A DNA stretch of 64,000 nucleotides, from IMG/VR virus record IMGVR_UViG_3300010885_065725; one strand, written 5' to 3'. Positions within the stretch are counted from its first letter, which is position 1. Each line of letters begins with the position of its first letter. Made by a program: the position numbers and the translations under genes. The notes under the pieces are model-generated. The model searched no databases. It worked only from the letters and a program-made list of their open reading frames with translations, and was not told the origin of the DNA. The DNA is from a virus. Taxonomy: Duplodnaviria; Heunggongvirae; Uroviricota; Caudoviricetes. Of this stretch, positions 19,186 through 38,541 are shown in pieces.

Positions 19186-19221
19186 AATCTTTTTATTAAT
19201 TAATTTTAGAGAATTTTATAT

Positions 19222-19821
19222 ATGATAATATGTATTTCTGGAACACATCGAAACGGAAAGACAACAGTTGCAAAGGAAGTAGCAGAAAGAATGTCTTTTA
19301 ATTTTGTAGAAACAAATGTTTCTTCTATGGAACTATGGAAAAAGATAGGATCTGCATCTTCTGCAGTATCTTTTGCAGAACGACTTTTTATACAGAAAGA
19401 AGTATTTTTATATATAAAAAATATTATTGAAATAAGAAATTCTAGACCAGAAAACATATATATTCTTGATCGTTCTCCTATTGATCTCATAGGATATCTT
19501 CTTGCAAATATTGATTATTCTTGTTCTTCTATTTTTGATGAAGAAGTAAAATATCTTATATATGAAATTCAAGAATTTGTTCATGAAAATATAAAAAAAT
19601 CATATTTTCTGCATCTGAATCATTTTATTCCATTTTCTCCTGAGAACGGAAAGGACAATAAAATATATAATTCTTTTGGATATCGAAAGGCAATCTCTAA
19701 CAATATTCTTGCTTCTCATGTAGAATTTATAGATGACGAAAGATGGAAAGATATCTTTCCTAATAGAGACAACGAATATGCAGTAAATATAATCTTAAAT
19801 GACATGATAAAATTATTATGA
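19222..19821 (+). CDS. P-loop nucleotide/nucleoside kinase (possibly dNMP kinase gp1-like)
   Basis: N-terminal MIICISGTHRNGKTT resembles T4 gp1 LSGVKRSGKDT. About 199 aa, kinase-sized. Confidence 0.4.
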   Translation: MIICISGTHRNGKTTVAKEVAERMSFNFVETNVSSMELWKKIGSASSAVSFAERLFIQKEVFLYIKNIIEIRNSRPENIYILDRSPIDLIGYLLANIDYSCSSIFDEEVKYLIYEIQEFVHENIKKSYFLHLNHFIPFSPENGKDNKIYNSFGYRKAISNNILASHVEFIDDERWKDIFPNRDNEYAVNIILNDMIKLL

Positions 19822-20801
19822 TAGAAGAAAAAAGAAAGGAAAAGGCAGTATTTGCATTGGAATATGCAAGAAAAAGAGGGATTCCTTATTATGAATACAA
19901 TAAAGAAGAAAGACAAATAGAATTCGAAAAAATATGCAGATCCAAATTTGCAAAGGGTATTGCAGGAGACGAAGTGCTTCAATTGTTGCATGGAATAGGA
20001 CTTGCATGGTCATATTTTCCTCATCATTGGGGAATAAAAGTGATGAAAATGAAGACTCCTCTTGATGTGTTCTATGATGATGCAATGCTTTCAAAGGCAT
20101 TGATTTCAAGAATGAAATGGGGAGGGGACACAAATATAAAAGAAGATGGATTTCTTTCTGATGCACAATTGAGAAAGGCAATTCGTACTGCATCGGGTGT
20201 GCAGTCAGTGAGCAATTTTAGACCTGTTGCTGCAGCATCTATCTATCATAAATATGCAGGTAATGGCATTGTCTGGGACATGAGTTGTGGTTTTGGTGGC
20301 AGACTCCTTGGAGCATTTGCTTCTGCAAGAGTGAAAAAATATATAGGAACAGAACCTTCTTCTCTTACGTTCGAAGGTCTGAAAAATATAAAAAAAGATT
20401 TTTCTTTTCTTCCTATGCAAGTAGAACTGCATAAATGCGGATCAGAAAATTTTATTCCTTCTTGCAGAGTAGATCTGTGTTTCACTTCTCCGCCATATTT
20501 CAATACAGAACAATATTCTGAAGAAGAGACACAATCATTCAAGAAATTCGTTACTACAGAAGAATGGAATGAAGGATTTTTGAGAAAAACGATACGCAAC
20601 TGTTTCGTGTGTTTGAATCTCAATGGATATATGATAATTAATATTGCAAATGTAAAATATCATAAGACACTAGAAGAAGATACTGTTAGAATTGCAGAAG
20701 AAGAAGGTTTCGTTCTGCACGAGACATTAAAATTGAGATTGAGCAGTCTCACCAAAGGTGGCTTCAAATATGAACCGATTTTTGTATTTAAATTGATATA
20801 G
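19818..20801 (+). CDS. DNA methyltransferase (N6-adenine or N4-cytosine; SPPY motif)
   Basis: AdoMet motif I VWDMSCGFGGR and catalytic motif IV CFTSPPYF about 70 aa later. About 140-aa N-terminal extra domain. Confidence 0.55.
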   Translation: MIEEKRKEKAVFALEYARKRGIPYYEYNKEERQIEFEKICRSKFAKGIAGDEVLQLLHGIGLAWSYFPHHWGIKVMKMKTPLDVFYDDAMLSKALISRMKWGGDTNIKEDGFLSDAQLRKAIRTASGVQSVSNFRPVAAASIYHKYAGNGIVWDMSCGFGGRLLGAFASARVKKYIGTEPSSLTFEGLKNIKKDFSFLPMQVELHKCGSENFIPSCRVDLCFTSPPYFNTEQYSEEETQSFKKFVTTEEWNEGFLRKTIRNCFVCLNLNGYMIINIANVKYHKTLEEDTVRIAEEEGFVLHETLKLRLSSLTKGGFKYEPIFVFKLI

Positions 20802-21239
20802 ATAGAGATAGATATTATATGAACGAAAAAATAACTGACGAAGAATTGTATGAAATGTGGTCATACAGTGGAAATTCTCTTTTGCAGACATTGCGAAATG
20901 TATATGCCGCAGGATATGCAAAGGCAATAGAAGAAAAAGATATTCCTGTTGCAGAAATAGAAACATTATGCGAATGAAAATAATTTTAATAACCACAATA
21001 GTAATAGGAATTTTATTATTACTTCCTTTTTGTGCAATTACCGGATTTCCACAATAAATGATAAACTGGATAGAAACAAAAATTATACAAACCTTTTTAT
21101 TGCTCACAGTGATTCTTGCTTCTCCATTTATTATCTATGCAATGATTGCCGCAGAAATTTTATATAGAAAAGAGAAAAAAGAAAAAGCTTCTGCAAAATA
21201 AAATTAACCCTTTCCCCACCCTTTTTTAGAGTATATATT

Positions 21240-21671
21240 ATGATTAGCACTTTTCATAGAGATTTAGAATGTGGATTAGCAATAGAACGTAAAGTTTTAA
21301 ATGGCATACAAAAAAAATATCCAGCATCTGTAATTATAAATGGACATAAAGGATATGATATATTTATTCCTGAACTTAATAATTACATAGAAGTAAAGTC
21401 AGATGTAAAAAGTAATGACACAGGCAATTATGTTGTTGAGATAGAAATGAGTGGTAAGTTATCTGCCTTGATGACAACGACTGCCACTTATTGGGTATTC
21501 TATGATGGTAAAACCTTTTTGTGGATACGACCAATGGACATCATAAATTGCATCTTTCAGAATAAGCTAACTTTTGTGACGTTCACAGGTAAGGGAGACA
21601 GGAATAGTAAAAAAGCATTTCTAATTAAAAAAGAAATGTTAGCCAAATATTCTATAGGAACAGAAATATAG
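21240..21671 (+). CDS. PD-(D/E)xK nuclease-fold protein
   Basis: Core motif order E (AIERK) ... GYDIFIPE ... IEVKSD (D..ExK) in a 143-aa protein. Confidence 0.4.
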   Translation: MISTFHRDLECGLAIERKVLNGIQKKYPASVIINGHKGYDIFIPELNNYIEVKSDVKSNDTGNYVVEIEMSGKLSALMTTTATYWVFYDGKTFLWIRPMDIINCIFQNKLTFVTFTGKGDRNSKKAFLIKKEMLAKYSIGTEI

Positions 21672-24308
21672 AGTTTAATAAATATTAATTATACTATTTT
21701 AGAGGATATACTATGAGATTAATTTCAATAATAATTCTGGTAGTTCTATTATTCATTTGGTTTAACATAGAAATATCTTCTAATAATCCTTGTAGTTCTT
21801 TTTCAAGAACTCCTTCACTTTGTAATTCAGATATCCACGAATAAAAAAATGTATTGATTATATTATAGAGATGTGATATAATTATTACTACTTTTTTAAT
21901 TACGTGAGAATTTTATATTATGATCAAATATACACCCATTGTAGTATCAATCCATAGAGATACCGAACATCCAATATTTGGCGAAGGTGCCATACATCTA
22001 AAATTAGAAGATGAAGCAGGAGGATTTTTCTTTGATATCAGTCAGGATGGATCTTCTTTTAGAATTGATTATGCAGAAATTTTAGAATTAGCAAAAGCAG
22101 CAAAATTCTTAATTGAAGGTGCAGGAGAATCTAATGGTTAAATATCATATTATTGTTCTATGCAAAACTATTGCAGTATTTATATTATTTGCTATATTAC
22201 TTATAGTGTTGGCAATATATCCTGTGCAAGCTTTACTTGTATTAATGTTTATATTGATATATTCTATGGTAGATTTTTACCAAAAAGGATTGGAGTGCAA
22301 TAAATTATGATGAATGATGTTACGATTAAAGGTCTTGTAGATACCTCAATTGTCAAATTAGTTATGGCAATAAATGACTACAACAAAGGTAATCCAGAAT
22401 ACGCAGAGGGAAGAATTGCTGAAGCAATTGTTACATTGAATCACATAGCAAAGCGAGAAAACTTTGCTTCTGTTGAGTTGGATAATATTTTTAAACATTG
22501 TCACGATATGGTATTGGAAGAATTATGAAATTTTTACTTTTTGTTAATGTTGCTGCAATTTTAACGAACCTTTGGTATTTACTAACTGAAGGCTATACTG
22601 ATTTACATTTTGTAGCAATAAGTATGTCTTTTGTTGCAATGATAATGGCTATATGCATGCTGATAGAGGATATATGAAAAATAATGAAGATTCAAATGAT
22701 AGAACTATTGTAGCGCACCTTGCGTGGCGATATAGATATTCTCTGAGGGCATATTATTTAGTTAGAGATAACGAAAAATCTCCTAAACTTTTAGTCGATT
22801 TAGCGTATTGTAAAGCTCAAGAAGCTTGGGATGCTTATTATTCAAGTAGGAGGTATATATAAAGATGAAAACTTATACAACACAAGTATTGGGGATCTTT
22901 GATGAAGAAGCTTATTTTTTTAAAATTCCAGATGAATTAATAGCAGATTTACAATGGAAATCTGGTGATAAGGTTGAGTGGATAGACAATGGTGATGGCT
23001 CATATTCTGTAAGGAAAGTATAATGAAATTATATAGAAAGAAACCGATTTCAGTAGAAGCAATGCAGTTTGAATATAATTCAGAATGCTTATCAAAACTT
23101 CAAGAATGGATGGGTGACAATATGAAAACATCCGGAAAAGATAGACATATTGATGCAAAAGGTTGGCTAGAAGTAATGACTCTTGAAGATGGTTTAGGAC
23201 ACAGAACTATTGCTCATATGGCAACAGAAGGTGATTATATCGTCAAAGGTTCATTTGGAGAATTCTGGGCTGTTAAGCAGCACATATTTGAAGAGACTTA
23301 TGAGGTAGTAGAATGATTAAAAAAGAGTATGATGGCAATACAGGAATGTATTATTATGTTTATAAAGATATTAGGTTTAGTGTTTCTAATGAATCTTTAT
23401 CAGAAATTTATGATATTGATGTAATCGAAGAAATCAAACGTGGTATTGATATCGCATTAACAGGATACAATATTGAACCTGTGGTAGATTTAATTAACAA
23501 AACTGCTAAACTGATTATTACTAAGAGGGTTGTATAATGATAACAATTGAAGAAGCAAAAGATATACTGATAGAAGAACTACAATTAGAAAACATTAAGT
23601 TAAAAAAACTCAATGAACTATTGGAATCACGATGCGCCAATATGGAAATTCTTTATAAAAATGTTAAAGGAGATTACCTGATATGATTGAACAAGAAATG
23701 GAAATGGTACTGGTAGAAACAATTTCACAATATCGTATTAGATATGTTGTAGAAGTTCCAGTAGGCAAAACAGACTGGGCATTGGATACAGTAACTTGTG
23801 ATATGGCAAAAGAGTTCTCTCAACAATTTGTAGGAGAATCCCTTTTATCTTCCAGAGTGATTGAAGAAGAAGAAATGCTGGAACTTTTCGTACAAGATAA
23901 TGCATATGCCAAGAGCTGGTCTATTGAAACTATCTACGAAAACTGCGTAACTTCAGACAAGGATATGCAATGAACTTTGATATAAACCGAATGAAGGAAG
24001 CATTAGAATGCCCAACAATTGATCTGGAGGAATTCAAACTTATGATAGAGAAAGGTACAGCAATCTGGAAAGATGTTCCTGAAAATTGGTTAGAAGATTT
24101 GAGAGGTAATATTGATGAAGAGTATTGAAGAATTAAGGAAAGAATATGATGATGCTAAAGATTTTCTCAATGCTACATGGGAAGCTCTTAATGTTATTGA
24201 CAATAGTTTACAGAATGCTCATAAGCAGTATACTGATGCATATGAAAAGGTATCTAAATGTGCAGATGCATTATATCCTGCTACTTGGGAAGATTATACA
24301 AAATAAGT

Positions 24309-24337
24309 GTTTACTTTCTCCATATAGGTAGTATAAT
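24309..24337 (+). promoter_or_regulatory. early promoter cassette copy 1 (GTTTAC-17-TATAAT)
   Basis: GTTTAC 24309-24314, TATAAT 24332-24337, conserved leader, GAGAG ribosome-binding site, ATG at 24369 (likely true start MTDNRLF of ORF 24258..24632). Confidence 0.6.
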
Positions 24338-24821
24338 AAGACATACTTTGAAATTGAGAGATTATATTATGACTGATAACAGACTATTTAGAAGTGAACA
24401 AGATGTTCGTGAATATTTCATAGATACAATTGCTATGACAAATTCTCCGATGAGACGAAATATTTTAATAAAAGGGATTTATATTGATGCCAAATTAAGA
24501 AGAGAAATCTTAACAGGTGAATTTGCTGGAAAGGTTACGATCCAAGGTAAAGTAGTAGAATACGAATTTAAAAATTTAGGTGGTGGTGTGTATAGTTGCA
24601 GTGTTACTGGCAAATGGGGTTACAATGACTAGACAAGAAGAATTCCAAGCAGAACTCAAAGCACTGCTTAAGAAATATGACGCTGAGATTAGTCTTCAAG
24701 ATGTTGGTACTTGGGACAATGATAACATAATAGTATTTTATGGTAATACAAAATGGGATATAGATGGTGATATAATCGAAGGATTTGAGTTCACTGGAAG
24801 ATATTTTGATGGAGGTGAATA

Positions 24822-25349
24822 ATGATTGACGTTATAGAGTTATTAAAAAGGGCATCAACTTGTGCATTTTATGCAGAGAATATTAAGTTGTATGAGGACA
24901 TTAATAGTTACTTAGAAGATCCAGGAGCAGAGACAAGTAATGATTTAATAAATGATATTAATTATCTTATAACAGCTTTTGAGAACGGTGCTGATGCTGA
25001 TGATTATTGGGGAGATATTAGTGACCTTAGATACAATTTATTAAATGTCGAAGAAGCTCTTTTTCGAAAACTTGTTCAAGAGCCTGTTGCTTGGATGTAT
25101 GAACGCGAACACGAAAATTTTACAGAGCTTACTTTATCAGTAGGGTTTGAAAAGAATTTTGATGGAATAACAACACCACTATACGAAATTCCGCCAAAAT
25201 GTGAGCCTTCAAAACGTGAGCCTTTGATTAACGATGTTATAAAGAAAGAATTGACTCATCAAATCAGTTTTGTATACAGAGATGCTTTCGTTGACGGTAT
25301 TTTATATGCAGAACAACAACACGGTATTGGAGTTAAAGATGAGTCTTGA
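24822..25349 (+). CDS. family B-related protein (QEPVAW motif)
   Basis: Contains LVQEPVAWMYERE and PLYEIPPKCEP, shared with other family B members. Confidence 0.4.
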   Translation: MIDVIELLKRASTCAFYAENIKLYEDINSYLEDPGAETSNDLINDINYLITAFENGADADDYWGDISDLRYNLLNVEEALFRKLVQEPVAWMYEREHENFTELTLSVGFEKNFDGITTPLYEIPPKCEPSKREPLINDVIKKELTHQISFVYRDAFVDGILYAEQQHGIGVKDES

Positions 25350-25689
25350 AAGAGAGTTGTTAAAGAAGTGGGTTGATAAGTGTATGTGGCGAGGTTCTAA
25401 CATGAGCCTACTCGAAGAAACTAAAGAATTACTTGCCCGACCTGAAACTACTCAAGATCGTGATTTAGCATATATAGAAGCCTCAAGTTTGGCATTAAGT
25501 TTACATAAGAAATTTTATGCAGAAGAATCTCCGAATTTTGGATTATGTGATTCTACAGCAGGAATTATTACTCAAATTAATAATATGACTTGTGGACTGA
25601 TGAAAATACCAGATGAACCTGAACAAGAGCCTGTGGCTTGGCAATATAGAACAAAACCAAATTGGACCGGAAATTGGTCAAAGTGGTAA
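25270..25689 (+). CDS. family B paralog (likely starts at MSLERELLKK, about 25340)
   Basis: MSLERELLKK N-terminus and EQEPVAWQYR. Confidence 0.4.
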   Translation: MYTEMLSLTVFYMQNNNTVLELKMSLERELLKKWVDKCMWRGSNMSLLEETKELLARPETTQDRDLAYIEASSLALSLHKKFYAEESPNFGLCDSTAGIITQINNMTCGLMKIPDEPEQEPVAWQYRTKPNWTGNWSKW

Positions 25690-26138
25690 GATTGTAGAAA
25701 GGAATCTTATGAAGATTATATAAGAGTTCCTTTATTACACGATTGGACTTATGAAACTAGAGAACTCTACACATCACCAAAACGTGAGTCTAAGAGTGAT
25801 GATGAATCATATTATCAACACATAAAAGAACATAAACAACAATGTGAAGATGATTTTATCAACCAACAAAGTGAAGAGCAGTGGTATGCAAATAGTCTAG
25901 GAGAAGACGATGAGTAATTTATTGTTATTTACATTAGATTATATTGAAAGAGATGAAAATGGTAATATTTGTTGCGAGTCTTATGGATACCCTATAGAAG
26001 CAACCTCGATGACTATGGCGATTATGCAATTTTATTATGCTGAATCAACTAATAAAAATTATCATATTATTATGATTAAAGAAATATTAAAATCAAGTTG
26101 GGAATATGAGAAAGTGAGAAGGAGAATGGAGGTGAATA

Positions 26139-26822
26139 ATGAGTGAAAACCTAAGATTACCTATACCTTTTAATATGGGCAAAGGTGAAACAGACCACCC
26201 TATATTATCTATAGGTAGTTCTTATAGTGCACTTAGAGATGATGTGAGTACTTGGTTGGATGCACATACAACAAGTGGTTGGAAATTTAATTATGACCAT
26301 AATGAATATTGCTTATGGTTTGAGGATTTAAATGATATGAATTTATTTATTAAAACATACTCATATAACATAATAGAGAAGAAGATGAAACCAATTAAAA
26401 TTAACAAAAACACTTGGCACTATCAAGTTGCCACAAAATATACATATCGTGATATTCACTTTGTAGAAAGTATCTGTGAATATAATCGCAGGGTGTTTAT
26501 GGGACTTGCTGCTATTTGTCTAATTATACTTGCATCGTCTTTAGCATTATTGATATTACTTTCGCCAATCTTTTATACTGTACTCCATCTAATATATGGA
26601 TTAGAGTTTGATTCTGATTCAACTGAATCTGCTTTGATAGTAGCTGGTATAGGGTTTTACATGGGTATTCTTGGAATTTACATAGCACATTTACTTACAG
26701 AACGAGAATATAAAAAAGTCTATGAAATGCCAGAAAATGGTATAGAACGAAAAGATTCCTATATCAAGTCAGCGTGGAAGTCATTCAAAGATAAAGTTTG
26801 TGTTAAAGTAGAGTTTGAGTAA
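26139..26822 (+). CDS. membrane protein
   Basis: 227 aa with C-terminal multi-pass hydrophobic region (GLAAICLIILASSLALLILL; AGIGFYMGILGIYIAHLL). Confidence 0.4.
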   Translation: MSENLRLPIPFNMGKGETDHPILSIGSSYSALRDDVSTWLDAHTTSGWKFNYDHNEYCLWFEDLNDMNLFIKTYSYNIIEKKMKPIKINKNTWHYQVATKYTYRDIHFVESICEYNRRVFMGLAAICLIILASSLALLILLSPIFYTVLHLIYGLEFDSDSTESALIVAGIGFYMGILGIYIAHLLTEREYKKVYEMPENGIERKDSYIKSAWKSFKDKVCVKVEFE

Positions 26823-26829
26823 AATAAGT

Positions 26830-26858
26830 GTTTACTTTTATCTCTGATGTAGTATAAT
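26830..26858 (+). promoter_or_regulatory. early promoter cassette copy 2
   Basis: GTTTAC 26830-26835, 17-bp spacer, TATAAT 26853-26858. The same ~70-bp block as copies 1 and 3 runs through to the ATG at 26893. Confidence 0.6.
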
Positions 26859-26892
26859 AAGTTATACTTTTTTAGAAACGAGAGATTATATT

Positions 26893-27093
26893 ATGAATAA
26901 TAAAATTAAAGAACTTGCAGAAGAATCTGGCGTTAGGTTTTGGCATTCTGTATTCGAAAATGATTATGAAAATTTTGATATAGAAATGTTTGCTAATTTA
27001 ATTATAGAAGAGTGTGCAGATGCCTTGTATAAAAGCAGACAGCGTTATGCATCAGAATTTATACTTGAACAGTTTGGAGAAAAAGATGTCTAA
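26893..27093 (+). CDS. family A small protein (MNxKIKELA / EKFAELLI-type)
   Basis: MNNKIKELAEESG...FANLIIEECADALY. Paralogs at 28051, 28318, 28851, 30241, 35677 and 27537. Confidence 0.45.
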   Translation: MNNKIKELAEESGVRFWHSVFENDYENFDIEMFANLIIEECADALYKSRQRYASEFILEQFGEKDV

Positions 27094-27547
27094 AGAAAGA
27101 GAGTTGTTAAAACAGATACAGCAGTTTTTACAGTGTGATTGTGAAGATATTTATGGATTTGCTAGTGATATCGAAGAACTTTTAACACAACCTGAGCCTC
27201 GGCAGGATAGCCATTGCTATTGGTGCGATGGTGAATATGATGCTGGAGCAAGACTAGCCAAACTTGAACAAGAGCCTGTGGCTTGGATTGATGCGGGAAG
27301 TCTTAAGAGCTTACAAGCGACTACAGGTTATGCACTACGGTATTTAACAAATGATACTGAAAATCTTAATGTTGATGATGTGCCGCTTTATCTAGCACCA
27401 CCAAAACCTGAGCCAGCACCAATACCTCAACGTGCGCCAATGACACAGAGAGAAGCGTACCAAAGAGGTTACAACGCAGCAGTACGTGACTTAAAACAAA
27501 AAGTAGATAGTGTTTTTAATTTAATTATGGAGAAGGATGATGTATAA
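27014..27547 (+). CDS. family B protein (true start MSKERELLKQ at about 27084)
   Basis: MSKERELLK, EQEPVAW, PLYLAPPKPEP, C-terminal YNAAVRDLKQKVDSVFNLIME. Start overlaps the stop of the upstream family A gene. Confidence 0.45.
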   Translation: MQMPCIKADSVMHQNLYLNSLEKKMSKERELLKQIQQFLQCDCEDIYGFASDIEELLTQPEPRQDSHCYWCDGEYDAGARLAKLEQEPVAWIDAGSLKSLQATTGYALRYLTNDTENLNVDDVPLYLAPPKPEPAPIPQRAPMTQREAYQRGYNAAVRDLKQKVDSVFNLIMEKDDV

Positions 27548-27827
27548 AGAAAAGATTGAAAAATTTTGGTATGATGCGCAACATCCTTTTTATGTTCGCT
27601 ACTGCGAACCTGAAGTATTGGAAAAATTTGCCGAATTGCTGATTAAAAATATCATTGATGAAATATCACAGTATCATTCTTCGACAATCAATGCTGGATT
27701 TATTCCAGAAAACCCTACTAATGAACACTATGAAGAATGGGGATATATCAAGGGAATCAATTGTGGGTATAATGATGCAGTAGAACAGATTGTCGATGGT
27801 TTAAGTACATATTATGGAATAAAATAA
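27537..27827 (+). CDS. family A-related protein
   Basis: LEKFAELLIKNIIDE motif. Confidence 0.35.
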   Translation: MMYKEKIEKFWYDAQHPFYVRYCEPEVLEKFAELLIKNIIDEISQYHSSTINAGFIPENPTNEHYEEWGYIKGINCGYNDAVEQIVDGLSTYYGIK

Positions 27828-28050
27828 TGAGTAGAGAAATATTTGACTTACCACCCTATGACGAAATCTGGAATACCAAACCAAAACCAGAAATTACAAT
27901 GACAACTGTTGAAAATTCAGAATGGAAATGTTATCTTTTTGGTAGCATGGATGGCAATGGTCTTGTATTTCAACCAAGGAAGGGATCAGAGCCTAATTGG
28001 TTTTGGAGAAAGATGCAGTTTTTAATTTTCGGAAACAGATGGGTAAAGTA

Positions 28051-28314
28051 ATGAACGATAGAATTAAAGAATTTGCAGAAAAAGCAGAAAAATATACTAG
28101 CGATAAGAATCCTGAAGAAGATTCATATGGTCGCCCTGTTAATGAAAAAAAGTATATATATGATCGTGATGCAAAGTTTGCTGAATTGATTGCGAAGGAA
28201 ATTCTCAATATAGCGGATGAATGCGATACCTTTAGCCAGAACCCAGAATGGTTAATATGTGAAAGATTGGGTATCAACCATGACTGGCGAAGACAAGATA
28301 ATTTTTGGAGTTGA
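28051..28314 (+). CDS. family A-related protein
   Basis: MNDRIKEFAEKAE...FAELIAKEILNIADECD (start chosen at an internal Met of ORF 27997..28314). Confidence 0.35.
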   Translation: MNDRIKEFAEKAEKYTSDKNPEEDSYGRPVNEKKYIYDRDAKFAELIAKEILNIADECDTFSQNPEWLICERLGINHDWRRQDNFWS

Positions 28315-28317
28315 AGA

Positions 28318-28662
28318 ATGAACGATAAAATCAAAGAACTTGCAATACGGTCAGGTGTGGTTGAGTCTCACGTAGATTGGGAAGCTGCTGGTGGTAATCT
28401 TCTTGAAAAGTTTGCCGAGTTGCTTATCGTAGATTGTATAAGACTCTGTGCTAAAATTGAGGATAGTTATCTTGAAGGAGACGATTCCAATACTGATATT
28501 GCTATTGGTGCTGCCGTCTGTGGATATGATATTGGAAAGTATTTTGGAGTAGATATACAAGAACCTAAAAAGGTTTGTAAAAATAAAATAGATGGAAGTT
28601 GTACATTACACAACATCTTTTGTGGATATCCAGAATGTGAAATATTGAAAGGGGAAGAATAA
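28318..28662 (+). CDS. family A protein
   Basis: MNDKIKELAIRSGV...LEKFAELLIVDCIRLC. Confidence 0.4.
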   Translation: MNDKIKELAIRSGVVESHVDWEAAGGNLLEKFAELLIVDCIRLCAKIEDSYLEGDDSNTDIAIGAAVCGYDIGKYFGVDIQEPKKVCKNKIDGSCTLHNIFCGYPECEILKGEE

Positions 28663-28850
28663 TGGAATTTTTAGATAATGAAGAGATCTCAACAGAAACA
28701 CGATTAAAAGCAGCTAATATTTTTTCAGATTTATTAAATATTAGTATTATTGCATTAGAAAAACAACTTGAATTAGAAAAGCAACTTGAATATGAGCATT
28801 CTACAAAGAATTGGGCAGCAGATCAAGAAGGTATTCAGAGGATGGGATTA

Positions 28851-29035
28851 TGAATAAGAAAATGATTAACAACATTGCATTTGATTGTTATTCAAATGTA
28901 AACAATGATTTTGACACGGTAAAGTTTGCTGAATTGATTATCCAAGAATGTATGAACCAATGTTTTAGTGAAGATGATGAACAACGTATTGCCAAATATT
29001 TTGGGTATCATATTGAGGAAGAAGATAATGAGTAA
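28851..29035 (+). CDS. family A protein
   Basis: MNKKMINNIAFDCY...VKFAELIIQECMNQC...YFGYHIEEEDNE (start at an internal Met of ORF 28811..29035). Confidence 0.35.
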
Positions 29036-29384
29036 AGAAAGAGAGTTATTGAAGAGGGTCATAGAAATCGATGATGGTAATGGAGATTTCTATATTGACG
29101 GAAAACTAGAATTTGATATAAAAGAATTGCTCGCCCAGACTGAGCAAGATGAAAAATTAAAAGTTGATTTTCAAACACTTAGCGAGATGGGATTAAAACG
29201 ATTACAAGTTGGTGATAATTTAGTTCTACAAGAAAGCTGTGCTAAATCACCTACTTTAATAATTGCTGAAAATGGGAATGTGATGGAGATTATAGAGTAC
29301 AAAAAATTACTTGAAATTAGGAGTTTTATTGATGAAATTTTAAATTACGCAGATACACCTCAAATAGGAGAACTAAATGAGTAA
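29029..29384 (+). CDS. family B-related protein (N-terminal MSKERELLKR only)
   Basis: Shares the MSKERELLK N-terminus but lacks QEPVAW. Overlaps the upstream family A gene. Confidence 0.35.
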
Positions 29385-29718
29385 AGAAAGAGAGTTACTG
29401 AAGAAGATTTGGGAAGATCTTGATGCTGACAGAGATAATTACAATGCGTTATGCGATGAGATAGAAGGACTACTCGAAACCCCTAAGCAAGAGCCTGTTG
29501 CTTGGGTTAGTAAACTAACAGGATTTATTACTACAGAAGATCAAGGTGATACTTCATCTTGGGTACCACTCTACCTAGCACCACCAAAACCTGAAATCTT
29601 AACGCATAAACAAGATGTAGAAGCATACAAAAGAGTTTTCTACACGGGGTACAACGCAGCAGTCCGTGATTTAAAACGAAAAGTAGACAGCGTCTTTAAT
29701 TTAATTATGGAGGAATAA
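29377..29718 (+). CDS. family B protein
   Basis: MSKERELLKK, KQEPVAWVSK, PLYLAPPKPE, YNAAVRDLKRKVDSVFNLIMEE. Confidence 0.45.
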   Translation: MSKERELLKKIWEDLDADRDNYNALCDEIEGLLETPKQEPVAWVSKLTGFITTEDQGDTSSWVPLYLAPPKPEILTHKQDVEAYKRVFYTGYNAAVRDLKRKVDSVFNLIMEE

Positions 29719-30240
29719 TGACAGTATTAAGTGTTTCGCCTATCTACCAAGCTAAGTGTGAGTATGCAGATTTGGAGTATTTTTCGGAAGCAATTTATGA
29801 ACAACTTTCTAAGTATTGTGTAGAGAATATTAACAATATGGATATGGAAGATTTAGTTGCTGGCTACTTTGAAGTTTATATTAATTGGAAAAGAAGATGA
29901 ACATATTCAATAAATTTAATGTAATAGATACGCAGACTAGAATTATGTCTGATTTTGGCAAGGGGTTTACTTCTGATGTAAAATCAGAATTATCTTATGA
30001 AGATAATAGTCCTTGGAGTCAGGTGTATGAATACAGAACTTTATTGAGAGTCAGATTTAGTGCTGGTAAACAAGATTATGATATGGCATTGGAAAATGCT
30101 AAGAAGCAGACTCAAAGTTATCTTTATAATGATGTATTAATATCATTGCTTGAAATGAAAACTTGTGTGTATAATGGTGATGCTCGTGCTACACTAGAAG
30201 AAATAGATAAACTTAGAAACCTGATAATGGATATTGACTA

Positions 30241-30435
30241 ATGAATGAAAATATAAAAGAACTTGCAAAACAGTCTGGTATTGAAATATATGGATTAGGC
30301 AAAGATAGAACCAAATGGGAAAATAGTTTAGAAAAGTTTGCTGAATTGATTGTGGAAGACTGTCTTGAATTATGTACTGATAGTGATACATATATTGATA
30401 TATCAGAACATTTTGGCATTGAGGATGAAGAATGA
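30241..30435 (+). CDS. family A protein
   Basis: MNENIKELAKQSGIE...LEKFAELIVEDCLELC...HFGIEDEE. Confidence 0.4.
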   Translation: MNENIKELAKQSGIEIYGLGKDRTKWENSLEKFAELIVEDCLELCTDSDTYIDISEHFGIEDEE

Positions 30436-30674
30436 GCGATAAGCAATCAATGTATGCTTTGTGCATAGGTGTTCCTGCTCTTATATTGTTGTTAATAGTA
30501 TTAGCATACAATAGAGATGAACACTGGCAAGAGTTTCAAAAAGAACATAACTGTAAGGTTACTGGAAAGGTAGATGCCTCTGTTTTATATGCAAATAAAC
30601 ATAGTGTATATGTACCAGAGAAGACTACTTATTTATGTGACGATGGTATTCAATATACAAAATAAGGAAACACT

Positions 30675-31316
30675 ATGAAAATATATACTTCGAACTATCG
30701 ATCACACTGGCTGTCTCCTTATACAATCCTAGAGAAGTTTTTCTTCTGGAGAAAGGGATATGATGCATATGAACAAGAACCACCAAAATGGTTAAATAAT
30801 TTTTCAGAAGGATTATATAAGTTTTTAAATACGGTGCATCCTAGAATCAATTTCATAAAAATTGATCAATATGACGCATGGAATGCAGATCAAACAATTG
30901 CTTCTATTGTCCTTCCTATCCTGCGAGAAGTAAAAAAAGATAAACATGGTGCTTCTGCAGTAGACAACGAAGATTGTCCTGAACATTTGATGTCTTGTTA
31001 TTCTCCCAGAGTAGAAAGTGAATGGGATATAGATGACTTTTTTTTTCTTAGATATGAGTGGATGTTGGGTGAAATTATATGGTCATTTGAACAGATAATT
31101 AATAAAGATCATTGGGAAGAACAATATTATTCTGGTAATGCAGACTATATGACAATAGAATCTGATGAAGAAGATGATGGGATAAAGTTACTGGAAATAG
31201 TAAAAAGTCCTAACCATACACAAGAGACTGATTGGGAAGGAATGAAACTACATCAGAAGAGAATCAATAATGGATTAAGATTATTCGGAAAATATTTTCA
31301 ATCCTTTTGGACATAA
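30675..31316 (+). CDS. hypothetical protein
   Basis: 213-aa ORF, no recognisable motif. Confidence 0.3.
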   Translation: MKIYTSNYRSHWLSPYTILEKFFFWRKGYDAYEQEPPKWLNNFSEGLYKFLNTVHPRINFIKIDQYDAWNADQTIASIVLPILREVKKDKHGASAVDNEDCPEHLMSCYSPRVESEWDIDDFFFLRYEWMLGEIIWSFEQIINKDHWEEQYYSGNADYMTIESDEEDDGIKLLEIVKSPNHTQETDWEGMKLHQKRINNGLRLFGKYFQSFWT

Positions 31317-31577
31317 TAATAAAATATTTAAAATAATGCTTTACATTTGATATAAAAGGTATATAATATACATACTTATTAAATATTATTATTATGAGGA
31401 AAAAATGAAAAAGTATTTTAAAATGTTTTTTGGGTGTGTGATATTTGTTGGAATATCCGGATATTTATTGCCGTATCTATTTTCACAACCTTCGGACATG
31501 GCAGTATTGTTAGGAATTGTTGTATTGTCACTATTGGCACCTTTTGTATATATTTATGGGAAATGGGTATTTAAAGT

Positions 31578-32429
31578 ATGAAAAAATTATTATTAGCAGT
31601 AGCAATTGCGTCAACTCTAACAGCATGTTCTGATGTACCTTCAGGATATGTCGGAGTAAAAGTTAATCTTTTAGGATCTGATAAAGGTGTAGATGTAACA
31701 GAATTGGGAACTGGAAGATACTGGATTGGTTGGAATGAGAAATTATATACTTTTCCTACTTTCTCTCAGAATCAAGTCTGGACAAAGGATAAAACCGAGG
31801 GTTCTCCTAATGATGATTCGATGAGTTTTCAAACCGTTGAAGGTCTTTCTGTCAATACTGATCTTGGAATCACTTATGCAATTGATCCAAAGAAAGTATC
31901 TATTATCTTTCAGAAATATCGTAAAGGAATTGACGAGATCACTTCTGTATATATGAGAAGTATGGTACGTGATGCATTAGTAACAGAAGCATCTACACGA
32001 CCTATCGAATCTGTCTATGGAAAGGGTAAAGCAGAACTTATCGAAGCAGTTCAGGTAAGAGTTAAAAAACAAACAGAATCTATTGGTATTATGGTAGAAA
32101 AAATCTATTTAGTTGGTGACTTAAGATTGCCAGAGTCTATTACTAACTCTATCAATGCTAAAATAGAAGCAACTCAAAAGACTCAACAACGTGAAAACGA
32201 GATTCAACAATCCAAAGCAGAAGCAGACAAGTTAGTAGAAGAAGCCAGAGGTGATGCAGCATCTACTCTGCTGAGAGCAAATGCAGAAGCTCAGGCAATT
32301 GCTGTGAAAGGTAAGGCAATTTCTGATAATCCTCTTGTTATTCAATTGAATTCTATTGAAAAATGGAATGGTCAATTACCTACTACAATGATTCCAGGTT
32401 CTTCTACTCCTTTTATTAATATTAAATAA
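31578..32429 (+). CDS. SPFH/band-7 (prohibitin-like) domain lipoprotein
   Basis: Lipoprotein signal MKKLLLAVAIASTLTAC. The body resembles SPFH-domain proteins (VPSGYVGVKVNLLG..., coiled-coil KIEATQKTQQRENEIQQSKAEADKLVEEARG). Confidence 0.45.
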   Translation: MKKLLLAVAIASTLTACSDVPSGYVGVKVNLLGSDKGVDVTELGTGRYWIGWNEKLYTFPTFSQNQVWTKDKTEGSPNDDSMSFQTVEGLSVNTDLGITYAIDPKKVSIIFQKYRKGIDEITSVYMRSMVRDALVTEASTRPIESVYGKGKAELIEAVQVRVKKQTESIGIMVEKIYLVGDLRLPESITNSINAKIEATQKTQQRENEIQQSKAEADKLVEEARGDAASTLLRANAEAQAIAVKGKAISDNPLVIQLNSIEKWNGQLPTTMIPGSSTPFINIK

Positions 32430-33889
32430 AAATATTAATTTTTTTTATATTATGTAGTATAATACTTTTATGCTACATAATATTTTCAACATTAAAAATA
32501 TATAATAAAATGAATAAAATAACAGTTTTATGGGTAGTAACAGAAGAGACATTTCCAGTACGATATTTTAAATACGAAGATTACAATCTTGCAGTAGAAT
32601 GTATGATAGAAGAAATTAGAAAATGTTCTAGTATTCCATATACTTTCAATGAGTTATATTTTGCTGTATATGAGTCGAATCCACTAACAAAAGATGTAGA
32701 AGAATTATTAAAATTTAGAAGAGAAGTATGAAAAGATATAATGTAAAGGGAATGCCAGTAGAGTTCATTGAAGTATTGAATGGCTACTGGATAAAACACG
32801 AAGATTACGAGAATACTGTTCTTGATTATAATAAAATTATTTCTAGAATGTCAGATTCTGGAGAATCTTTTCGACAAGCAATTAAAGATGAATGCAATGA
32901 AAAACTAGAAAAACAACATCGTATAATTATCTATCTGTCCACGGCAACATTTGCTATGGCTTCAATATTATTATTTAAGGTATTATCGTAATGAAAGATT
33001 TTACAAAAGATGAAGAATTGACTTATAATACACTTTTATTAAACGTAAGAACTGCTTCTAGTAGTAATTGTAATTACCATATAGCACGACTTAAAGATTT
33101 TGTTGATGTAATGATAGCCAAACAAAATGGCTATTGTCCTGGTGGCTACGAAATTCCTTAATTTTTTATATTATGCATAATTATATTAGTCGATGGAAAA
33201 ATGCTCTTCGTTGGGCACAAAAGATCAAGGCATCTTTTGATACAGGAAAATATATTTTAGTTCATGACGAAGAAATATATACCCCTAATTATTGGAAAAT
33301 TGAAATAGACGAAGAAAGACAATTTATCATATTAATCTGTGAATCTAAAAATAGTAGAGAACGGATTTATGAATATGATTTAGAATATGATCATGGTTCT
33401 TATGATACTATAGCAGTATCTAATGAAAGATTTAGTACATATAAACTTTATAAGGTAGAAGAATGAGTGCAGATTTAGATAAATTGTTTAAAAAGAAAAA
33501 AATATATCCAGAAGATGTATTTATAGATATAGAAACAGGAAATTACAAAGCAAAAACTACTAATTGTCATGATTCTTGCCATGGCGGACATGGCACACAT
33601 GGCAGTCATATTGATCATGGTAACGGGAAAATAGATAAACCAGATTATCCTAAAGCAGTTCCATTGCCATCAGTAATTTGGATATTTCTTAGTGGAATAT
33701 TTTTCCTATTTTTTATTAATAGAAGAAAATGACTAGAGAAATGTTCAAAAAGTTTGTAAAAGAAATTAATAATATCTATTACTCCATGGAATGGATTCCA
33801 GAAGGTAATGTATCTGATGAAATTTTTGAAGAGGAAAATGAAATGCCTGAAAATTTAAAGGTATTATTGGTGAAACTTGTTTATGATAT

Positions 33890-34297
33890 ATGGTAGAAAT
33901 GATGAGTGAAGAAAGAAAGTTAATAAAGGATATGAAAATCTTACTAGAATGCACGGACATGGGTGGTCTACAGCGTCAAGCTGATGTGTTAATTGGGAGA
34001 GCTGTAAAACTACTCGCCCAACCTGATCAAGAGCCAGTAGCTTGGATGTATGACTGGAAAACAAAAGTTGAGCAACCATTTTTTGAATATAAAAATCATG
34101 TGACGACTGATATTACAGATAAAACTCAAATGGAGAATATCCGACCACTCTATATAGCACCACCAAAACCTGATCCTTTGGGTGCTGAAAGATTAAAAGC
34201 CATAGCAGTCGCAGATGAATTTTTACTTTATTGCAATGAAGATGAATTTATAGACATTGCCAGAGCTATTGAGAAAGCTCACGGTATAAGTATATGA
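33890..34297 (+). CDS. family B protein
   Basis: MSEERKLIKDMK, DQEPVAWMYDWK, RPLYIAPPKPDP. Confidence 0.4.
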   Translation: MVEMMSEERKLIKDMKILLECTDMGGLQRQADVLIGRAVKLLAQPDQEPVAWMYDWKTKVEQPFFEYKNHVTTDITDKTQMENIRPLYIAPPKPDPLGAERLKAIAVADEFLLYCNEDEFIDIARAIEKAHGISI

Positions 34298-34926
34298 AAG
34301 TCTATATTGTGACTGCCTATAGATGGGGTGATAGAGAGACGCATAGTTATGTTGTTGGTGTATTTGATGATAAAGAATTATCAATATTGGCTGCAAAAAC
34401 AGAAAAAGAATGGCGTGGAGGAAAATATGATTGTGAAGTAGTTTCTATGAAACTGAATGAATCACGAGAAAACAATAATTATGTAGTAGAATATAAAATC
34501 GAGGAATATTTTAAAAATGAAAAATTATAAAGAATTTATGGAAGCAGTGTTAGCTGGTGAAATCTTATATAAAGCTATTACTGATATTAAGATGAAACTT
34601 TGTCCAACAACTTTAAATATATCTTTAAAGAGTAAGGATGGTGTTTGGGTAGAAAATGTCTGTTGGTATTTTCCTGATATAGCAGAATGGGAAATTCTAC
34701 CAAAGACTATCAATATCAATGGTATTGAAGTTCCTGAACCAGTTAGGAAACCTTTAGCACATCAACAGAATTATTATTTGTTAGCAATCTATAGAGAAGT
34801 TTTTTATTGTTCTTGGCTTAGTACTGAACAAGATTATATGTGGTTAAATCAAGGTTTGATTCATCTAACAAAAGAAGCAGCCATTATTCACAGAGATGCT
34901 TTATTATCATTTACACAAAAATAGTT

Positions 34927-34955
34927 GTTTACTTTCTCTCTAGATGTAGTATAAT
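34927..34955 (+). promoter_or_regulatory. early promoter cassette copy 3
   Basis: GTTTAC 34927-34932, 17 bp, TATAAT 34950-34955, conserved leader, ATG at 34989 (57-aa ORF MNESIEYEINF..., not in the ORF track). Confidence 0.6.
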
Positions 34956-35676
34956 AACTTATACTTTTTAGAAACGAGAGATTATATTATGAATGAGTCA
35001 ATTGAATACGAAATAAATTTTACCCATTGGAATATCCTTCAAGGAAAGCATGAAAATAGATATGATTTTTTCAAGGCGAAATCTATAAAAGAAGTCAAAG
35101 CAATGACATATTGGAAATATGGCGATTTGATTGATATTTTATCTGTAAAGGTATTTGAATGAAACAACCAATTTTTACACCAACAATGACAAAGATGCAT
35201 TTATGAAAATATATTTATTATGGCAAAATGAAAATCGTGGATATGATACCTATGATTCTGTCGTTGTTGCAGCAGAAGATGAAGAGTCTGCTAGACAAAT
35301 CCATCCTAGCACTTGCTCGGAAAACCCTTGGAGTATAGGAAGTTGGAGTTGGGGTAGTAACTGGTGTTCTTCTCCTGATGATGTTAGTGTTGAATATATC
35401 GGAACATACGAAGGCGAAAAAACTAAACCCCATATAATTTTGGCATCATTTAACGCAGGGTGATAAGATGAGTGTTAAATTACAGCAGTTAGTTGAAGCA
35501 GAAATGGAACTGTATATGGAAGGTCTTTATGCCGATTCCAAATCTGCTCAATGGAGCTTAGAAGACTTTTCAAAAGAAGTGGTGAAGTTATGTGCTGAAC
35601 ATATCTTGAACAGTTCCGACAGACACAGAAGAGAATACTTTGCTGAATCTTTATTAGAAAACTTTGGAGTAGAATA

Positions 35677-35886
35677 ATGAAACCTAAAATTCTAGAAATT
35701 GCAAAGAAAGCTGGATTCCAAGAAGGATTCAGTTGGGCAATGGAATCATTTAGTATAGATACATTTGCCAAATTGATTATAGAAGATGCTTTGGATATAA
35801 TGAAAGATGAAATTTCTTATTATAGCGATTGGAGTGTTGCAGAAGGTACTTCTAAAAAAATCAAAGAACATTTTGGAGTTGAGTGA
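35677..35886 (+). CDS. family A protein
   Basis: MKPKILEIAKKAGFQEG...FAKLIIEDALDIMKDE...HFGVE. Confidence 0.35.
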   Translation: MKPKILEIAKKAGFQEGFSWAMESFSIDTFAKLIIEDALDIMKDEISYYSDWSVAEGTSKKIKEHFGVE

Positions 35887-36996
35887 TGGATGATAAAATT
35901 AAACAACTAAAAGAACTTTGGGTTAAAGCTCCATTAGAAGAATCAAAAGAACCCTATGTTGCATACAGAGTTGCACAAGAAACAGATGCAATGGTAGATA
36001 GTATTAGAAGGATGGCACACTATATGGCGTGTAAAGAATGGGAAGATTATCTCAATCAACTGAAAAAAGATAGGATATAATATAAATGATTGAACCAATA
36101 GATTTTAGTAAGTATGAAGTTCCAGAATTTCCTCATAGTATCCATTATCGGAATGATAAAGATGGTTACGAAGAGGCATTAGTAAACTGGCATAAACTAA
36201 ACGAGTCCACTGAGGCAGAATTTACAGTAAGGCTTGAATATTACTTGATGGATTATCTATCAATAGAGTTAAATGATGATTCTGTTGATATTGGTAAGAT
36301 TCAAACTTTAGTAGAGATTGCTATGAGTTATGTTGAGGGATGGGAAGAAGTAGTAGAACTTGCTGTTAGAATGTTACCTTTGATTATGGAGAAGAAATTA
36401 TGACCCCAGAAGAAAAGATTATGCAGTTGTCTGTGGGTAAAGTTGTAAAGTGGAATAGATCAAAATATCCTAATCATGTATTATATGTGCATATAATTGG
36501 GTTTGTTACTTGTTCAGGATGGACATTATCCACAGGTGTTATAGTTAATAATCATGGGAGCCAGTTATCAGCACCAGTACCATCAGAAGAGCTTGAATTA
36601 TGATGAATAAAACATATAAATAAAAATATAGCAGACCTTATATAAATTCGCATGGTCATATTGTCAGGATGCGACTAAAACTTGACAAGCTACCCTATTA
36701 AATTCCTACTATTTGAGAAATATATAATGCAAAATTATTCAAGAAAAAAAATTAAAGTAAAAATAATGAATACATCAAAATTGACATTCATTAAGCATAC
36801 AGGAAATGTTTGTCCTATCCCTATGGATTCTGTTGTTGTATATAGAACAACTTCCCCAGAAAATTTCAGAAGTCATGTACATGTTGCTGCGTCTGCAGAT
36901 GTTCTTACATGGGACGATTCTGCTCATATGGGAAGAATTTATGAGTATGCGATCATAAAATAAACATTGACAGATTATTGAGAAGAATATATAATA

Positions 36997-37998
36997 TTGC
37001 TTTCAACTTACATACATTATGAGAGAATAAAAAAAATGGCACATGAATTGACGATTAGAGAAAATGGGTTTGTAGAAACTGCGTGGACAGGAGATAGAAG
37101 TAAAATTTGGCATTTACAAGGACAACAATTGAGTGAAAATTCTTCAATAGAAGAATGGAAAGTACAGAGTGGTCTTGATTGGGATATTCTAGGATCTCCT
37201 ATTTCTTTTCAAGGAAATGGCGACAGAACTATTTTTCCTAGCAAGAAAGCACTCTATCGCAGTGATACTGTTGCTCCTCTTTCTATTGTAGGAAGCGACT
37301 ACAAAATTGTTCAGCCAGGAGAAGTATTAGAATTCTTCAGAGATCTCGTAGAGAATCACGGAATGAAACTTTCTGCGGCAGGATCTCTGTATGGCGGAAA
37401 AAAATTCTGGGCAACTGCAGAAGTAGGGAAGAGCGAAGAAATCACTTCTGGTGACGTAGTAGAAGGTTTTCTTTTACTCACAACTTCTGCAGATGGTACA
37501 CTTGCAACAACAGCAAAATTCTCTTCTGTACGCACCGTTTGCAACAATACCCTCAATATTGCATTAAATGGTTCAGGAAACCTTGTGAAGGTCTCTCACA
37601 AGTCGATTTTTGATGCTTCACAAGTAAAGATTGATCTTGGATTGATTGATACTGGCTGGAACAATTTTGTGAAGGATCTGCGTAATTTCAGCAACCAAGA
37701 AATCTCGCCTTCTTTTGCAAAAAGTTTTATTTTTGATCTTGTAATGAATAAAAAATTAGAAGTTAATGAACAACCAGATTCTGTTCATGACATTACTGCA
37801 AACATTATGAGTAAATTTCGTAATGGAATCGGAAACGAAGGTAAGACTTCATGGGATCTGTTGAATGGTATTACAGAATTTTATACTCATGAGAAAGGCA
37901 GAACAAGAACAACAGATGCATTATTCTGGAACAATTTTTATGGTTCTCAGGCAAAAATGAAATCTGACGCATACGATAGTTTACTATTGGCTGCATAA
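36997..37998 (+). CDS. hypothetical protein (probable start MAHELTIRENG at about 37036)
   Basis: About 320-aa ORF in the early region. No confident family assignment. Confidence 0.3.
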   Translation: MLSTYIHYERIKKMAHELTIRENGFVETAWTGDRSKIWHLQGQQLSENSSIEEWKVQSGLDWDILGSPISFQGNGDRTIFPSKKALYRSDTVAPLSIVGSDYKIVQPGEVLEFFRDLVENHGMKLSAAGSLYGGKKFWATAEVGKSEEITSGDVVEGFLLLTTSADGTLATTAKFSSVRTVCNNTLNIALNGSGNLVKVSHKSIFDASQVKIDLGLIDTGWNNFVKDLRNFSNQEISPSFAKSFIFDLVMNKKLEVNEQPDSVHDITANIMSKFRNGIGNEGKTSWDLLNGITEFYTHEKGRTRTTDALFWNNFYGSQAKMKSDAYDSLLLAA

Positions 37999-38073
37999 CA
38001 ATTTACTCTGTGCAAAGAGCCCTCTCAGGGATAGTGTAAAAAGCTATCCCTTTTTTTATTATAAGGAATTTAT

Positions 38074-38541
38074 ATGAGATACATTATTTTAATTACATTA
38101 CTATTTTCTTTTCCTTTGTATGCAACAGAAAATAATTCTGTTCCATTGGGAGCAATAAATGAAAATATCACACAAGAAAATATTCATTCTACAATTTGTG
38201 TGCCAAATTTTACTGATACGATACGACCAGATACACAATATACAAACAAATTGAAATTTTTGCAGATAGAACAACGAAAATATTCTGATAATAATATGAG
38301 ATCATATGAAGAAGATCATTATATTCCTTTGGGTATTGGCGGTCATCCCAGAGATAAAAATAATCTATGGCCGCAGCCATATTCCGGAAAATGTGGAGCA
38401 AAGATAAAAGATATTCTGGAATCGAAGTTGCATAATATGATATGTTCCGGAAAAATTCTTTTGAAGGATGCCCAAAAAGAAATTTCTACTGATTGGGTCG
38501 CATCATATAATAGACATATCAGACCTTTGAAGTGCAATTAA
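38074..38541 (+). CDS. secreted hypothetical protein
   Basis: N-terminal signal peptide MRYIILITLLFSFPLYA. Stop is adjacent to the start of the oxygenase-like gene. Confidence 0.35.
   Translation: MRYIILITLLFSFPLYATENNSVPLGAINENITQENIHSTICVPNFTDTIRPDTQYTNKLKFLQIEQRKYSDNNMRSYEEDHYIPLGIGGHPRDKNNLWPQPYSGKCGAKIKDILESKLHNMICSGKILLKDAQKEISTDWVASYNRHIRPLKCN

Follow-up and report, generated by a model that had tools for sequence, protein, structure and literature searches.

What keeps three intergenic stretches of one phage genome nearly identical when each stands ahead of a different gene? The question is raised by a 64-kb sequence of an uncultured T4-like myovirus (IMG/VR record IMGVR_UViG_3300010885_065725; the whole stretch analyzed is called the window hereafter, and positions count from its first letter). 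Its plus strand carries three 75-bp cassettes in which promoter-like boxes are joined to a conserved leader that runs into the start codon of a small open reading frame (ORF). We consider it probable that these are early promoter and translation-initiation cassettes akin to the promoter-early stem-loops (PeSLs) of other T4-type phages, and that functional constraint and recombination together have kept them alike.

The cassettes had been described in an earlier note on this DNA, and direct reading of the sequence confirmed all three (Table 1), with pairwise identities of 0.80, 0.80, and 0.90 and longest common exact runs of 16-27 nt. They share one order of parts, namely an A-rich stretch, GTTTAC, a 17-bp spacer, TATAAT, AACTTATAC, a U-rich stretch, GAGAG, ATTATATT, and ATGA. 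The AT-rich stretch 5' of the -35 element reads AAAATAAG (the cassette 1 type) or AAAAATAG and includes the stop codon of the upstream gene, a TAA or TAG that ends the preceding ORF 3-9 nt ahead of the -35 in all three. Every cassette coincides with one intergenic gap and spans it completely, between the stop codon on one side and the ATG of the next gene on the other. Alignment places the beginning of the similarity at or just ahead of that stop and its end 1-3 nt past the ATG, and the coding DNA flanking the three cassettes is unrelated and does not align. Within the cassettes, GAGAG, the 8 nt after it, and the ATG are identical in 3/3 copies, while the sequence of the promoter spacer differs from copy to copy.

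Table 1. Coordinates of the cassettes, their diverged relatives, and other signals in the variable block of the window (aa, amino acids)
Feature	Position	Strand	Details
Cassette 1	24300..24372	+	TAA stop 24304-24306; GTTTAC 24309-24314; TATAAT 24332-24337; GAGAG 24356-24360; ATG 24369-24371; 87-aa ORF
Cassette 2	26820..26896	+	TAA stop 26820-26822; GTTTAC 26830-26835; TATAAT 26853-26858; GAGAG 26880-26884; ATG 26893-26895; 66-aa ORF (paralogue family A)
Cassette 3	34918..34992	+	TAG stop 34922-34924; GTTTAC 34927-34932; TATAAT 34950-34955; GAGAG 34976-34980; ATG 34989-34991; 57-aa ORF
Diverged family member	21845..21922	+	TTGATT-17-TATAAT (21854-21882), then TACTTTTTTAATTACGTGAGAATTTTATATTATGA; ATG 21920
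Diverged family member	31330..31407	+	CTTTAC 31339-31344; 17-bp spacer; TATAAT 31362-31367; ATACATACTT; different leader (GAGGA Shine-Dalgarno); ATG 31405; family profile E 0.11
Leader-only remnant	21202..21242	+	CCCTTTTTTAGAGTATATATTATGA, without recognisable promoter; ATG 21240
Leader-like remnant	21672..21715	+	TTATACTATTTTAGAGGATATACTATGA; ATG 21713
First promoter of the block	19157..19224	+	Perfect TTGACA-17-TATAAT (19157-19185); same leader class (TTTTAGAGAATTTTATATATGA); ATG 19222
Second perfect TTGACA-17-TATAAT	36967-36995	+	With the 19157 site, near the two ends of the block
Intrinsic-terminator-like hairpin	38027..38051	+	9-bp stem, then T run; the only strong one on the plus strand of the block; near the block end, adjoining no cassette
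Variable (hyperplastic) block	19222..39085	+	About 60 co-directional, mostly small ORFs between minus-strand replication and structural modules; holds all three cassettes

Several searches returned the same three sites. The exact motif GTTTAC-N17-TATAAT occurs in the window at the three cassettes only; a search that tolerates one mismatch gives 6 matches where 1.29 are expected, a count that was reached in 1 of 100 shuffles. The 17-mer GAGAGATTATATTATGA has exactly three occurrences. Searching with a profile of the three copies returns them at E values of 1e-20 to 1e-22, with the next match in the window at E 0.23, and a profile of 20 family members recovers the same three. No additional full copy was found by the profile searches of the 64 kb, and a search of the 5 kb to the left of the window found no further cassette. 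A separate observation concerns the gap at 32430-32509, which contains a cassette-like extended -10 (ATGTAGTATAAT) with no clear -35; this -10 lies within a 9-bp inverted repeat, ATTATGTAG...CTACATAAT.

The promoter half bears out the match to T4 early promoters that the earlier note had proposed. In the consensus of Miller et al. 2003, as used by Nolan et al. 2006 (PMC1524935), a T4 early promoter has GTTTAC at -36..-31, TATAAT at -12..-7, an A-rich part at -40..-44, and a GT-rich stretch 5' of -12. The three cassettes have all of these elements, including the UP-like A-rich part, the GT-rich part, and the 17-bp spacing. The setting agrees as well, in that the cassettes precede small novel ORFs co-oriented with early genes, within the co-directional small-ORF block of a T4-like phage. 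Unlike in T4 early promoters, however, conservation in the cassettes continues for ~40 nt past the -10, through the start region and the leader to the start codon. A T4-type middle promoter, in which a MotA box of the form (a/t)(a/t)(a/t)TGCTTtA stands 11-13 bp upstream of the -10, was rejected, TGCTT being absent from the window cassettes. The cassettes of one related contig, L247, do have TGCTTGA, at 18 bp from the -10, and this is the position of a -35 element, not that of a MotA box.

In the interpretation that we prefer, each cassette would by itself supply all the signals needed to express the gene that opens an early transcription unit. It would combine an A-rich, UP-like stretch with the preceding stop codon, a host sigma-70-type promoter, the conserved start region, a ~30-nt unstructured U/A-rich 5' leader, a weak purine Shine-Dalgarno, an 8-nt A/T spacer, and the ATG followed by A. 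Host RNA polymerase would fire the cassette promoters straight after infection, and the leader would give the promoter-proximal gene stand-alone translation initiation that does not rely on coupling to the upstream ORF. The copies are then probably alike for two reasons. First, purifying selection would preserve the promoter boxes together with the start and translation-initiation regions, leaving the spacer to drift. Second, homologous exchange would have occurred repeatedly among copies, both within a genome and between related phages. Such exchange would make the cassettes breakpoints for the insertion, deletion, and relocation of cassette-plus-gene modules, as described for PeSLs.

The 5' half of the cassette (AAAATAAGTGTTTACTTTT ... 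GTAGTATAAT) also recurs in many viral contigs that are otherwise dissimilar (e.g., L148, L163, L134, L193, and L031), some of which have, in addition, a GAGAGA..TATATTATG initiation region. This recurrence may reflect a promoter optimum common to the phages of one host group. When bacterial genome contigs were searched for a source or host of the cassette, only chance promoter-like matches, in Firmicutes, were returned.

Relatives of the whole cassette were sought by pattern scans of viral and metagenomic contigs that were filtered with the cassette profile; the filter was needed, as short exact-motif scans mostly returned unrelated AT-rich contigs. The family recurs ahead of different genes in several uncultured relatives (L004/L007, L041/L244, L120, L245, L072/L109, and L247). 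The closest comparison is that of cassette 3 with a copy in L004 (L004_3668, also present in L007), which is 92% identical to it, while the neighboring genes are 70-77% identical in DNA. The two copies share a 52-nt identical run, TGTAG...ATGAATGA, that begins immediately 5' of the -10 and continues for 5 nt beyond the ATG, and their differences are confined to the promoter spacer and to positions upstream of the -35. At a background divergence of ~25%, 52 unchanged positions have a probability of 0.75^52, or ~3e-7, so the run is very unlikely without selection or recent exchange. The same two contigs also contain a cassette (L004 3415-3458; L007 837-880) with a 38-bp deletion between two internal TACTTT direct repeats, which has removed the spacer and the -10 while the -35 and the full leader are kept ahead of a 66-aa ORF.

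The contig L247 (Ga0209770_10002585, 1-9001) is the richest of the relatives, with ~20 cassettes in 9 kb, one before nearly every small ORF. The 5' half of its cassettes (AAAGTGCTTGAC...) is particular to L247, as is the leader of most of them, and two of the cassettes are chimeric, joining the L247 5' half (AAAGTGCTTGA...) to the leader type common to the other phages. In four L247 copies a GGGCAAAGCCC hairpin lies between the start region and the Shine-Dalgarno. Cassettes of one genome average 0.84 identity in the window and 0.75 in L247, whereas a window copy and an L247 copy average 0.68, and the copies of each genome have variants in common, GTGTTTAC and CTTTTTAG in the window and GTGCTTGA and CTTAAT in L247. 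The contig also has two tandem minus-strand cassettes (~1632-1677 and ~1769-1813) with GC-richer sequence after them; these might drive a non-coding RNA, and a tRNA search of the contig found none.

These comparisons bear on whether the cassettes need any common history at all. Strong promoters could have been tuned independently to one optimum of host polymerase and ribosome, with no recombination among them, and such convergence would account for the very similar promoter halves in otherwise unrelated viral contigs, for the differing spacers, and for the near-identical genomes of three samples in which no rearrangement is seen. The identity extends, however, to positions with no known role in a consensus, such as AACTTATACTTTTTAGAAAC, and copies of one genome share variants of their own, both in the window and in L247. 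Chimeric cassettes, a -10-deleted cassette, and nested indels bounded by cassettes are likewise not what independent tuning predicts, and we regard convergence alone as an unlikely explanation.

The indels in question lie between two anchor genes, g23683 and g36086, that are conserved in relatives. In L245, the anchors are separated by little more than one cassette; in L004/L007, by ~1 kb with a few genes, one -10-deleted cassette, and one full cassette; and in the window, by ~12 kb within which cassettes 1, 2, and 3 lie. The gene behind cassette 3, g34989, also differs in position among the phages: its homologue opens the block in L004, whereas in L247 it follows the g36086 homologue, and a cassette stands ahead of it in both. 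Nested indels and a relocated gene form the pattern expected if cassette-plus-gene modules move by recombination between cassettes, which we infer from the gene orders; at 70-77% nucleotide identity, the relatives are too diverged for the exact rearrangement junctions to be placed. The earlier note had proposed to look for deletions or duplications between copies in related isolates; the relatives have cassette-bounded indels and -10-deleted and chimeric copies, and the near-identical contigs of three samples have no variant arrangement around cassettes 2 and 3. A transposon-like element was considered and rejected, as no terminal inverted repeats or target duplications were seen on reading and the copies are all co-oriented with the genes and end at the ATG.

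The note had further suggested that the repeats could drive gene-family expansion, and here the evidence points the other way. Between 24822 and 35886 the block has two paralogue families, A (genes at 26893, 28318, 28811, 30241, and 35677) and B (24822, 27014, 28968, 29377, and 33890), whose members are 30-42% identical in protein and have no Pfam match. Both families are old. Only 1 of the ~10 paralogues stands behind a cassette, and the genes adjacent to the three cassettes are not mutually homologous. The presence of these families between and around the cassettes could also be taken to mean that the cassettes are leftovers of recent tandem gene-plus-promoter duplications, with no selected function beyond that of an ordinary promoter. 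Under that explanation, similarity should not end as it does, at the upstream stop and 1-3 nt past the ATG, nor should the flanking genes lack homology to one another. In addition, protein identities of 30-42% among the paralogues stand against DNA identities of 80-90% among the cassettes, the same cassette precedes other genes in other phages, and degenerate cassette remnants upstream of most paralogues were not seen. Segmental duplication is largely refuted by these observations, and we give it very little credence.

If the leader is under selection, the question becomes what that selection acts upon. Most genes of the window have a GGAG/AGGA Shine-Dalgarno, beside which the GAGAG of the cassettes is weak. 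An initiation region of the type (G)AGAG..TATAT(T)ATGA is found in 8 genes, which comprise the three cassette genes and those starting at 108, 19222, 21240, 21713, and 21920, several of them clearly promoter-proximal. This suggests that the (G)AGAG-type leader is specialised for stand-alone initiation at the first gene of a transcript. A comparable design, though not a homologous one, is seen in the leader of T7 gene 10, a strong phage translation leader with a U/A-rich 'epsilon' enhancer. In the cassettes, too, the leader is short, unstructured, and rich in U/A (ACUUUUUAGAAAC...), and it leads through a purine Shine-Dalgarno and an A/U spacer to the AUG, but their Shine-Dalgarno (GAGAG) is weak.

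Conserved structure was not found in this leader by any of the approaches used. The leader and start region of the three copies fold slightly worse than shuffled sequence (z +0.6, +0.9, and +1.2), which fits an open initiation region. RNAalifold returned no consensus structure for the cassette family, and an Rfam search of 19000-39500 on both strands gave no match at E up to 1. The earlier note had taken the conservation of the leader to imply selection on the RNA leader or recombination. Selection and/or recombination holds, and both seem to apply, while the RNA component is narrowed, since without a conserved structure selection on the RNA can act only on the linear, unstructured translation-initiation region.

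Two specific structures were tried and rejected. The first was a terminator formed over the -10 by the hairpin AGTATAA-TAAS-TTATACT and a T run; its energies (-1.1, -3.0, and -3.2 kcal/mol; z -0.07 to -1.08) are no better than those of shuffled sequence. The palindrome is a 5-7-bp, A/T one that is neither significant nor conserved, and one of its pairs is broken in 9/20 copies by the common CTCATA variant. The second was masking of the Shine-Dalgarno in read-through RNA by the pyrimidine-rich spacer of cassettes 2 and 3 (UUUCUC with GAGAGA). In the T4 genes e, soc, 49, and I-TevI, the ribosome-binding site is masked in read-through transcripts and free in transcripts from an internal promoter (reviewed in PMC3014915), and cassettes 2 and 3 are similar to the extent that a transcript from the cassette's own promoter lacks the spacer that could pair with GAGAGA. 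Unlike in those genes, the cassette fold is no better than shuffled (z -0.8, -1.4, and +0.4), and across 20 family members the spacer-GAGAG pairing shows neither covariation nor an excess over shuffled columns.

An unstructured leader could also serve as the operator of a post-transcriptional regulator. By analogy with T4, the invariant AU-rich segment over the start codon (GAGAGAUUAUAUUAUGA) might be bound by a RegA-type repressor, or the GGAG-free Shine-Dalgarno might escape a RegB-type nuclease, so that the cassette genes would be switched off, or spared, together. T4 RegA does bind unstructured AU-rich sites that overlap the AUG (SELEX consensus aaAAUUGUUAUGUAA), and every T4-related genome sequenced up to 2010 is reported to contain regA. 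The cassette leader is unstructured, its -10-to-ATG segment is far more conserved than the neighboring genes, and the cassette genes have GAGAG where most internal genes have GGAG, the target of RegB. Against this, the similarity to the T4 SELEX site amounts to only 4/9 positions upstream of the AUG, which is the chance level in AT-rich sequence, and a Pfam scan of window ORFs turned up neither a RegA nor a RegB homologue. The regA gene of T4-like phages is located immediately past genes 44/62; with the clamp-loader gene (62379-63326) at the right edge of the window, the usual place of regA would fall beyond the right end. We view such an operator as doubtful, and it would in any case be compatible with PeSL-like cassettes. 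The same low probability applies to its broader form, in which the invariant segment of unstructured leader and start codon (ACUUUUUAGAAACGAGAGAUUAUAUUAUGA) would be a shared RNA operator, forming one post-transcriptional switch for all cassette genes. Any gene captured behind a cassette would in that case acquire both early transcription and a timed translational shut-off.

PeSLs provide the nearest precedent for PeSL-like cassettes that combine expression and exchange. They are known from the T4-type phages RB49/phi1, T4/PST, and KVP40/nt-1, where, within ~100 bp or less, an upstream stop in an AT-rich stretch is followed by a sigma-70-like promoter, a stem-loop terminator of variable position, and a Shine-Dalgarno with a start codon (Arbiol et al. 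2010, PMC2839356; Comeau et al. 2014, PMC4122927). They cluster in variable regions before ORFans, adjoin indels between related phages, and can recombine into mini-circles (PMC2839356, PMC4122927). The cassettes studied here are likewise repeated, intergenic, and ~70-100 bp long, with the same order of parts and with a Shine-Dalgarno and downstream start codon at the 3' end of the conserved block. Their promoter, exactly GTTTAC-N17-TATAAT in the three window copies, fits the T4/PST PeSL consensus TTTACW-N17-TAYWAT. All window copies, whether full, diverged, or remnant, lie before ORFans in the variable small-ORF block at 19.2-39.1 kb. Indels and gene relocations that distinguish related phages have cassettes at their edges, exchange points appear to lie between the -10 and the Shine-Dalgarno, and degraded half copies exist, the -10-deleted cassette of L004/L007 resembling the published '1/2 PeSLs'. 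They differ from PeSLs in number, with 3 full copies in 64 kb where RB49 has ~50 per genome, and in that conservation is strongest in the 5' leader and initiation region instead of in the AT-rich stretch upstream. They also come from a phage that is only distantly related, whose best cultured portal and head matches, at ~50-56% protein identity, are cyanophages.

A number of observations weigh against the interpretation that we prefer. First, the window copies have no stable stem-loop terminator, the defining part of a PeSL; a leader hairpin is seen in four L247 copies. Pairing of the -10 hairpin across 20 family members, at 76% against 74% in shuffled columns, is a value reached by 79/500 shuffles, and no terminator-like site adjoins any cassette. 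Second, three full copies in 64 kb and its 5-kb extension are far sparser than the cassettes of RB49 or L247. Third, the near-identical contigs of three samples have the same arrangement around cassettes 2 and 3, and they caught no ongoing rearrangement. Fourth, several of the related cassettes were found by means of an exact 16-mer of the leader, which inflates the apparent invariance of that segment. Finally, GAGAG offers only ~3 nt of pairing with the anti-Shine-Dalgarno, so strong translation is an assumption.

Because the cassettes have every sequence-level feature of PeSLs except the stable stem-loop, we call them PeSL-like promoter-leader cassettes, not full members. Judging from the sequence comparisons, they appear to work as PeSLs do, as promoters and as recombination points, without the terminator function that isolates modules transcriptionally. 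In this sense, the cassettes of the window are a new example of a kind of element already described, in a lineage with no earlier report of it, and are largely explained.

The surrounding genome is arranged as expected for such a phage. Its source is an uncultured T4-like myovirus. At 2-18 kb, the minus strand encodes a family-B DNA polymerase split in two, a gp46-like nuclease, a helicase, UvsY, and endonuclease VII; at 39-58 kb, it encodes the large terminase and the sheath, portal, and major head proteins. No cultured phage is close: megablast of 12 kb against phage genomes found no match, and in protein searches the head and portal proteins show ~50-62% identity to their counterparts in cyanomyoviruses and a Methylophilales phage. 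Two JGI metagenomes and one SRA run contain stretches 100% identical to the window. With 32 matches where 15.5 are expected, the T4 late-promoter motif TATAAATA is enriched, and many of the matches lie upstream of structural genes. The layout of the plus-strand block is that of a T4-type variable ("hyperplastic") early region. Its ORFs have a positive GC skew and no Pfam matches, as is also true of the proteins downstream of the cassettes, and its intergenic gaps are few, three of them being filled by the cassettes.

Other features were noted outside the variable block. The two parts of the DNA polymerase, both on the minus strand, are an exonuclease (8740-9726) and a polymerase (6140-7849), and between them a plus-strand ORF at 8002-8757 resembles HNH/homing endonucleases, with a paralogue at 59713-60564 on the minus strand and two homologues in L244. 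Also between the polymerase halves, an inverted repeat, GCCAAT...ATTGGC, at 7938-7977 is terminator-like, having a T run after it on the minus strand; it has a counterpart at L004 1249-1278, in a region 80-86% identical to L004 and L041, and GTTTAC and TATAAAT motifs lie directly downstream of it on the minus strand. Two tRNA genes (Gln-TTG and Met-CAT) lie at 13889-14277 on the minus strand, within the replication/recombination module. In the large-terminase ORF (51285-53051, minus strand), the first ~140 residues are 47% identical to the first ~136 of a gp46-like ORF of L244, and the terminase profile match begins only near residue 100-130, which suggests either a shared N-terminal module or a mis-extended ORF.

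For the family, the findings call for no new class of mechanism and widen the PeSL concept to include T4-like phages of a deep-branching, uncultured lineage that is known only from metagenomes. In this lineage the stem-loop terminator appears to be dispensable. The cassette also represents a ready-made candidate for a strong promoter and leader, and in these genomes its consensus serves to recognise early transcription units and the probable edges of the variable island. PeSLs are portable cassettes of promoter and ribosome site that express newly acquired genes and mark the sites at which such genes are swapped.

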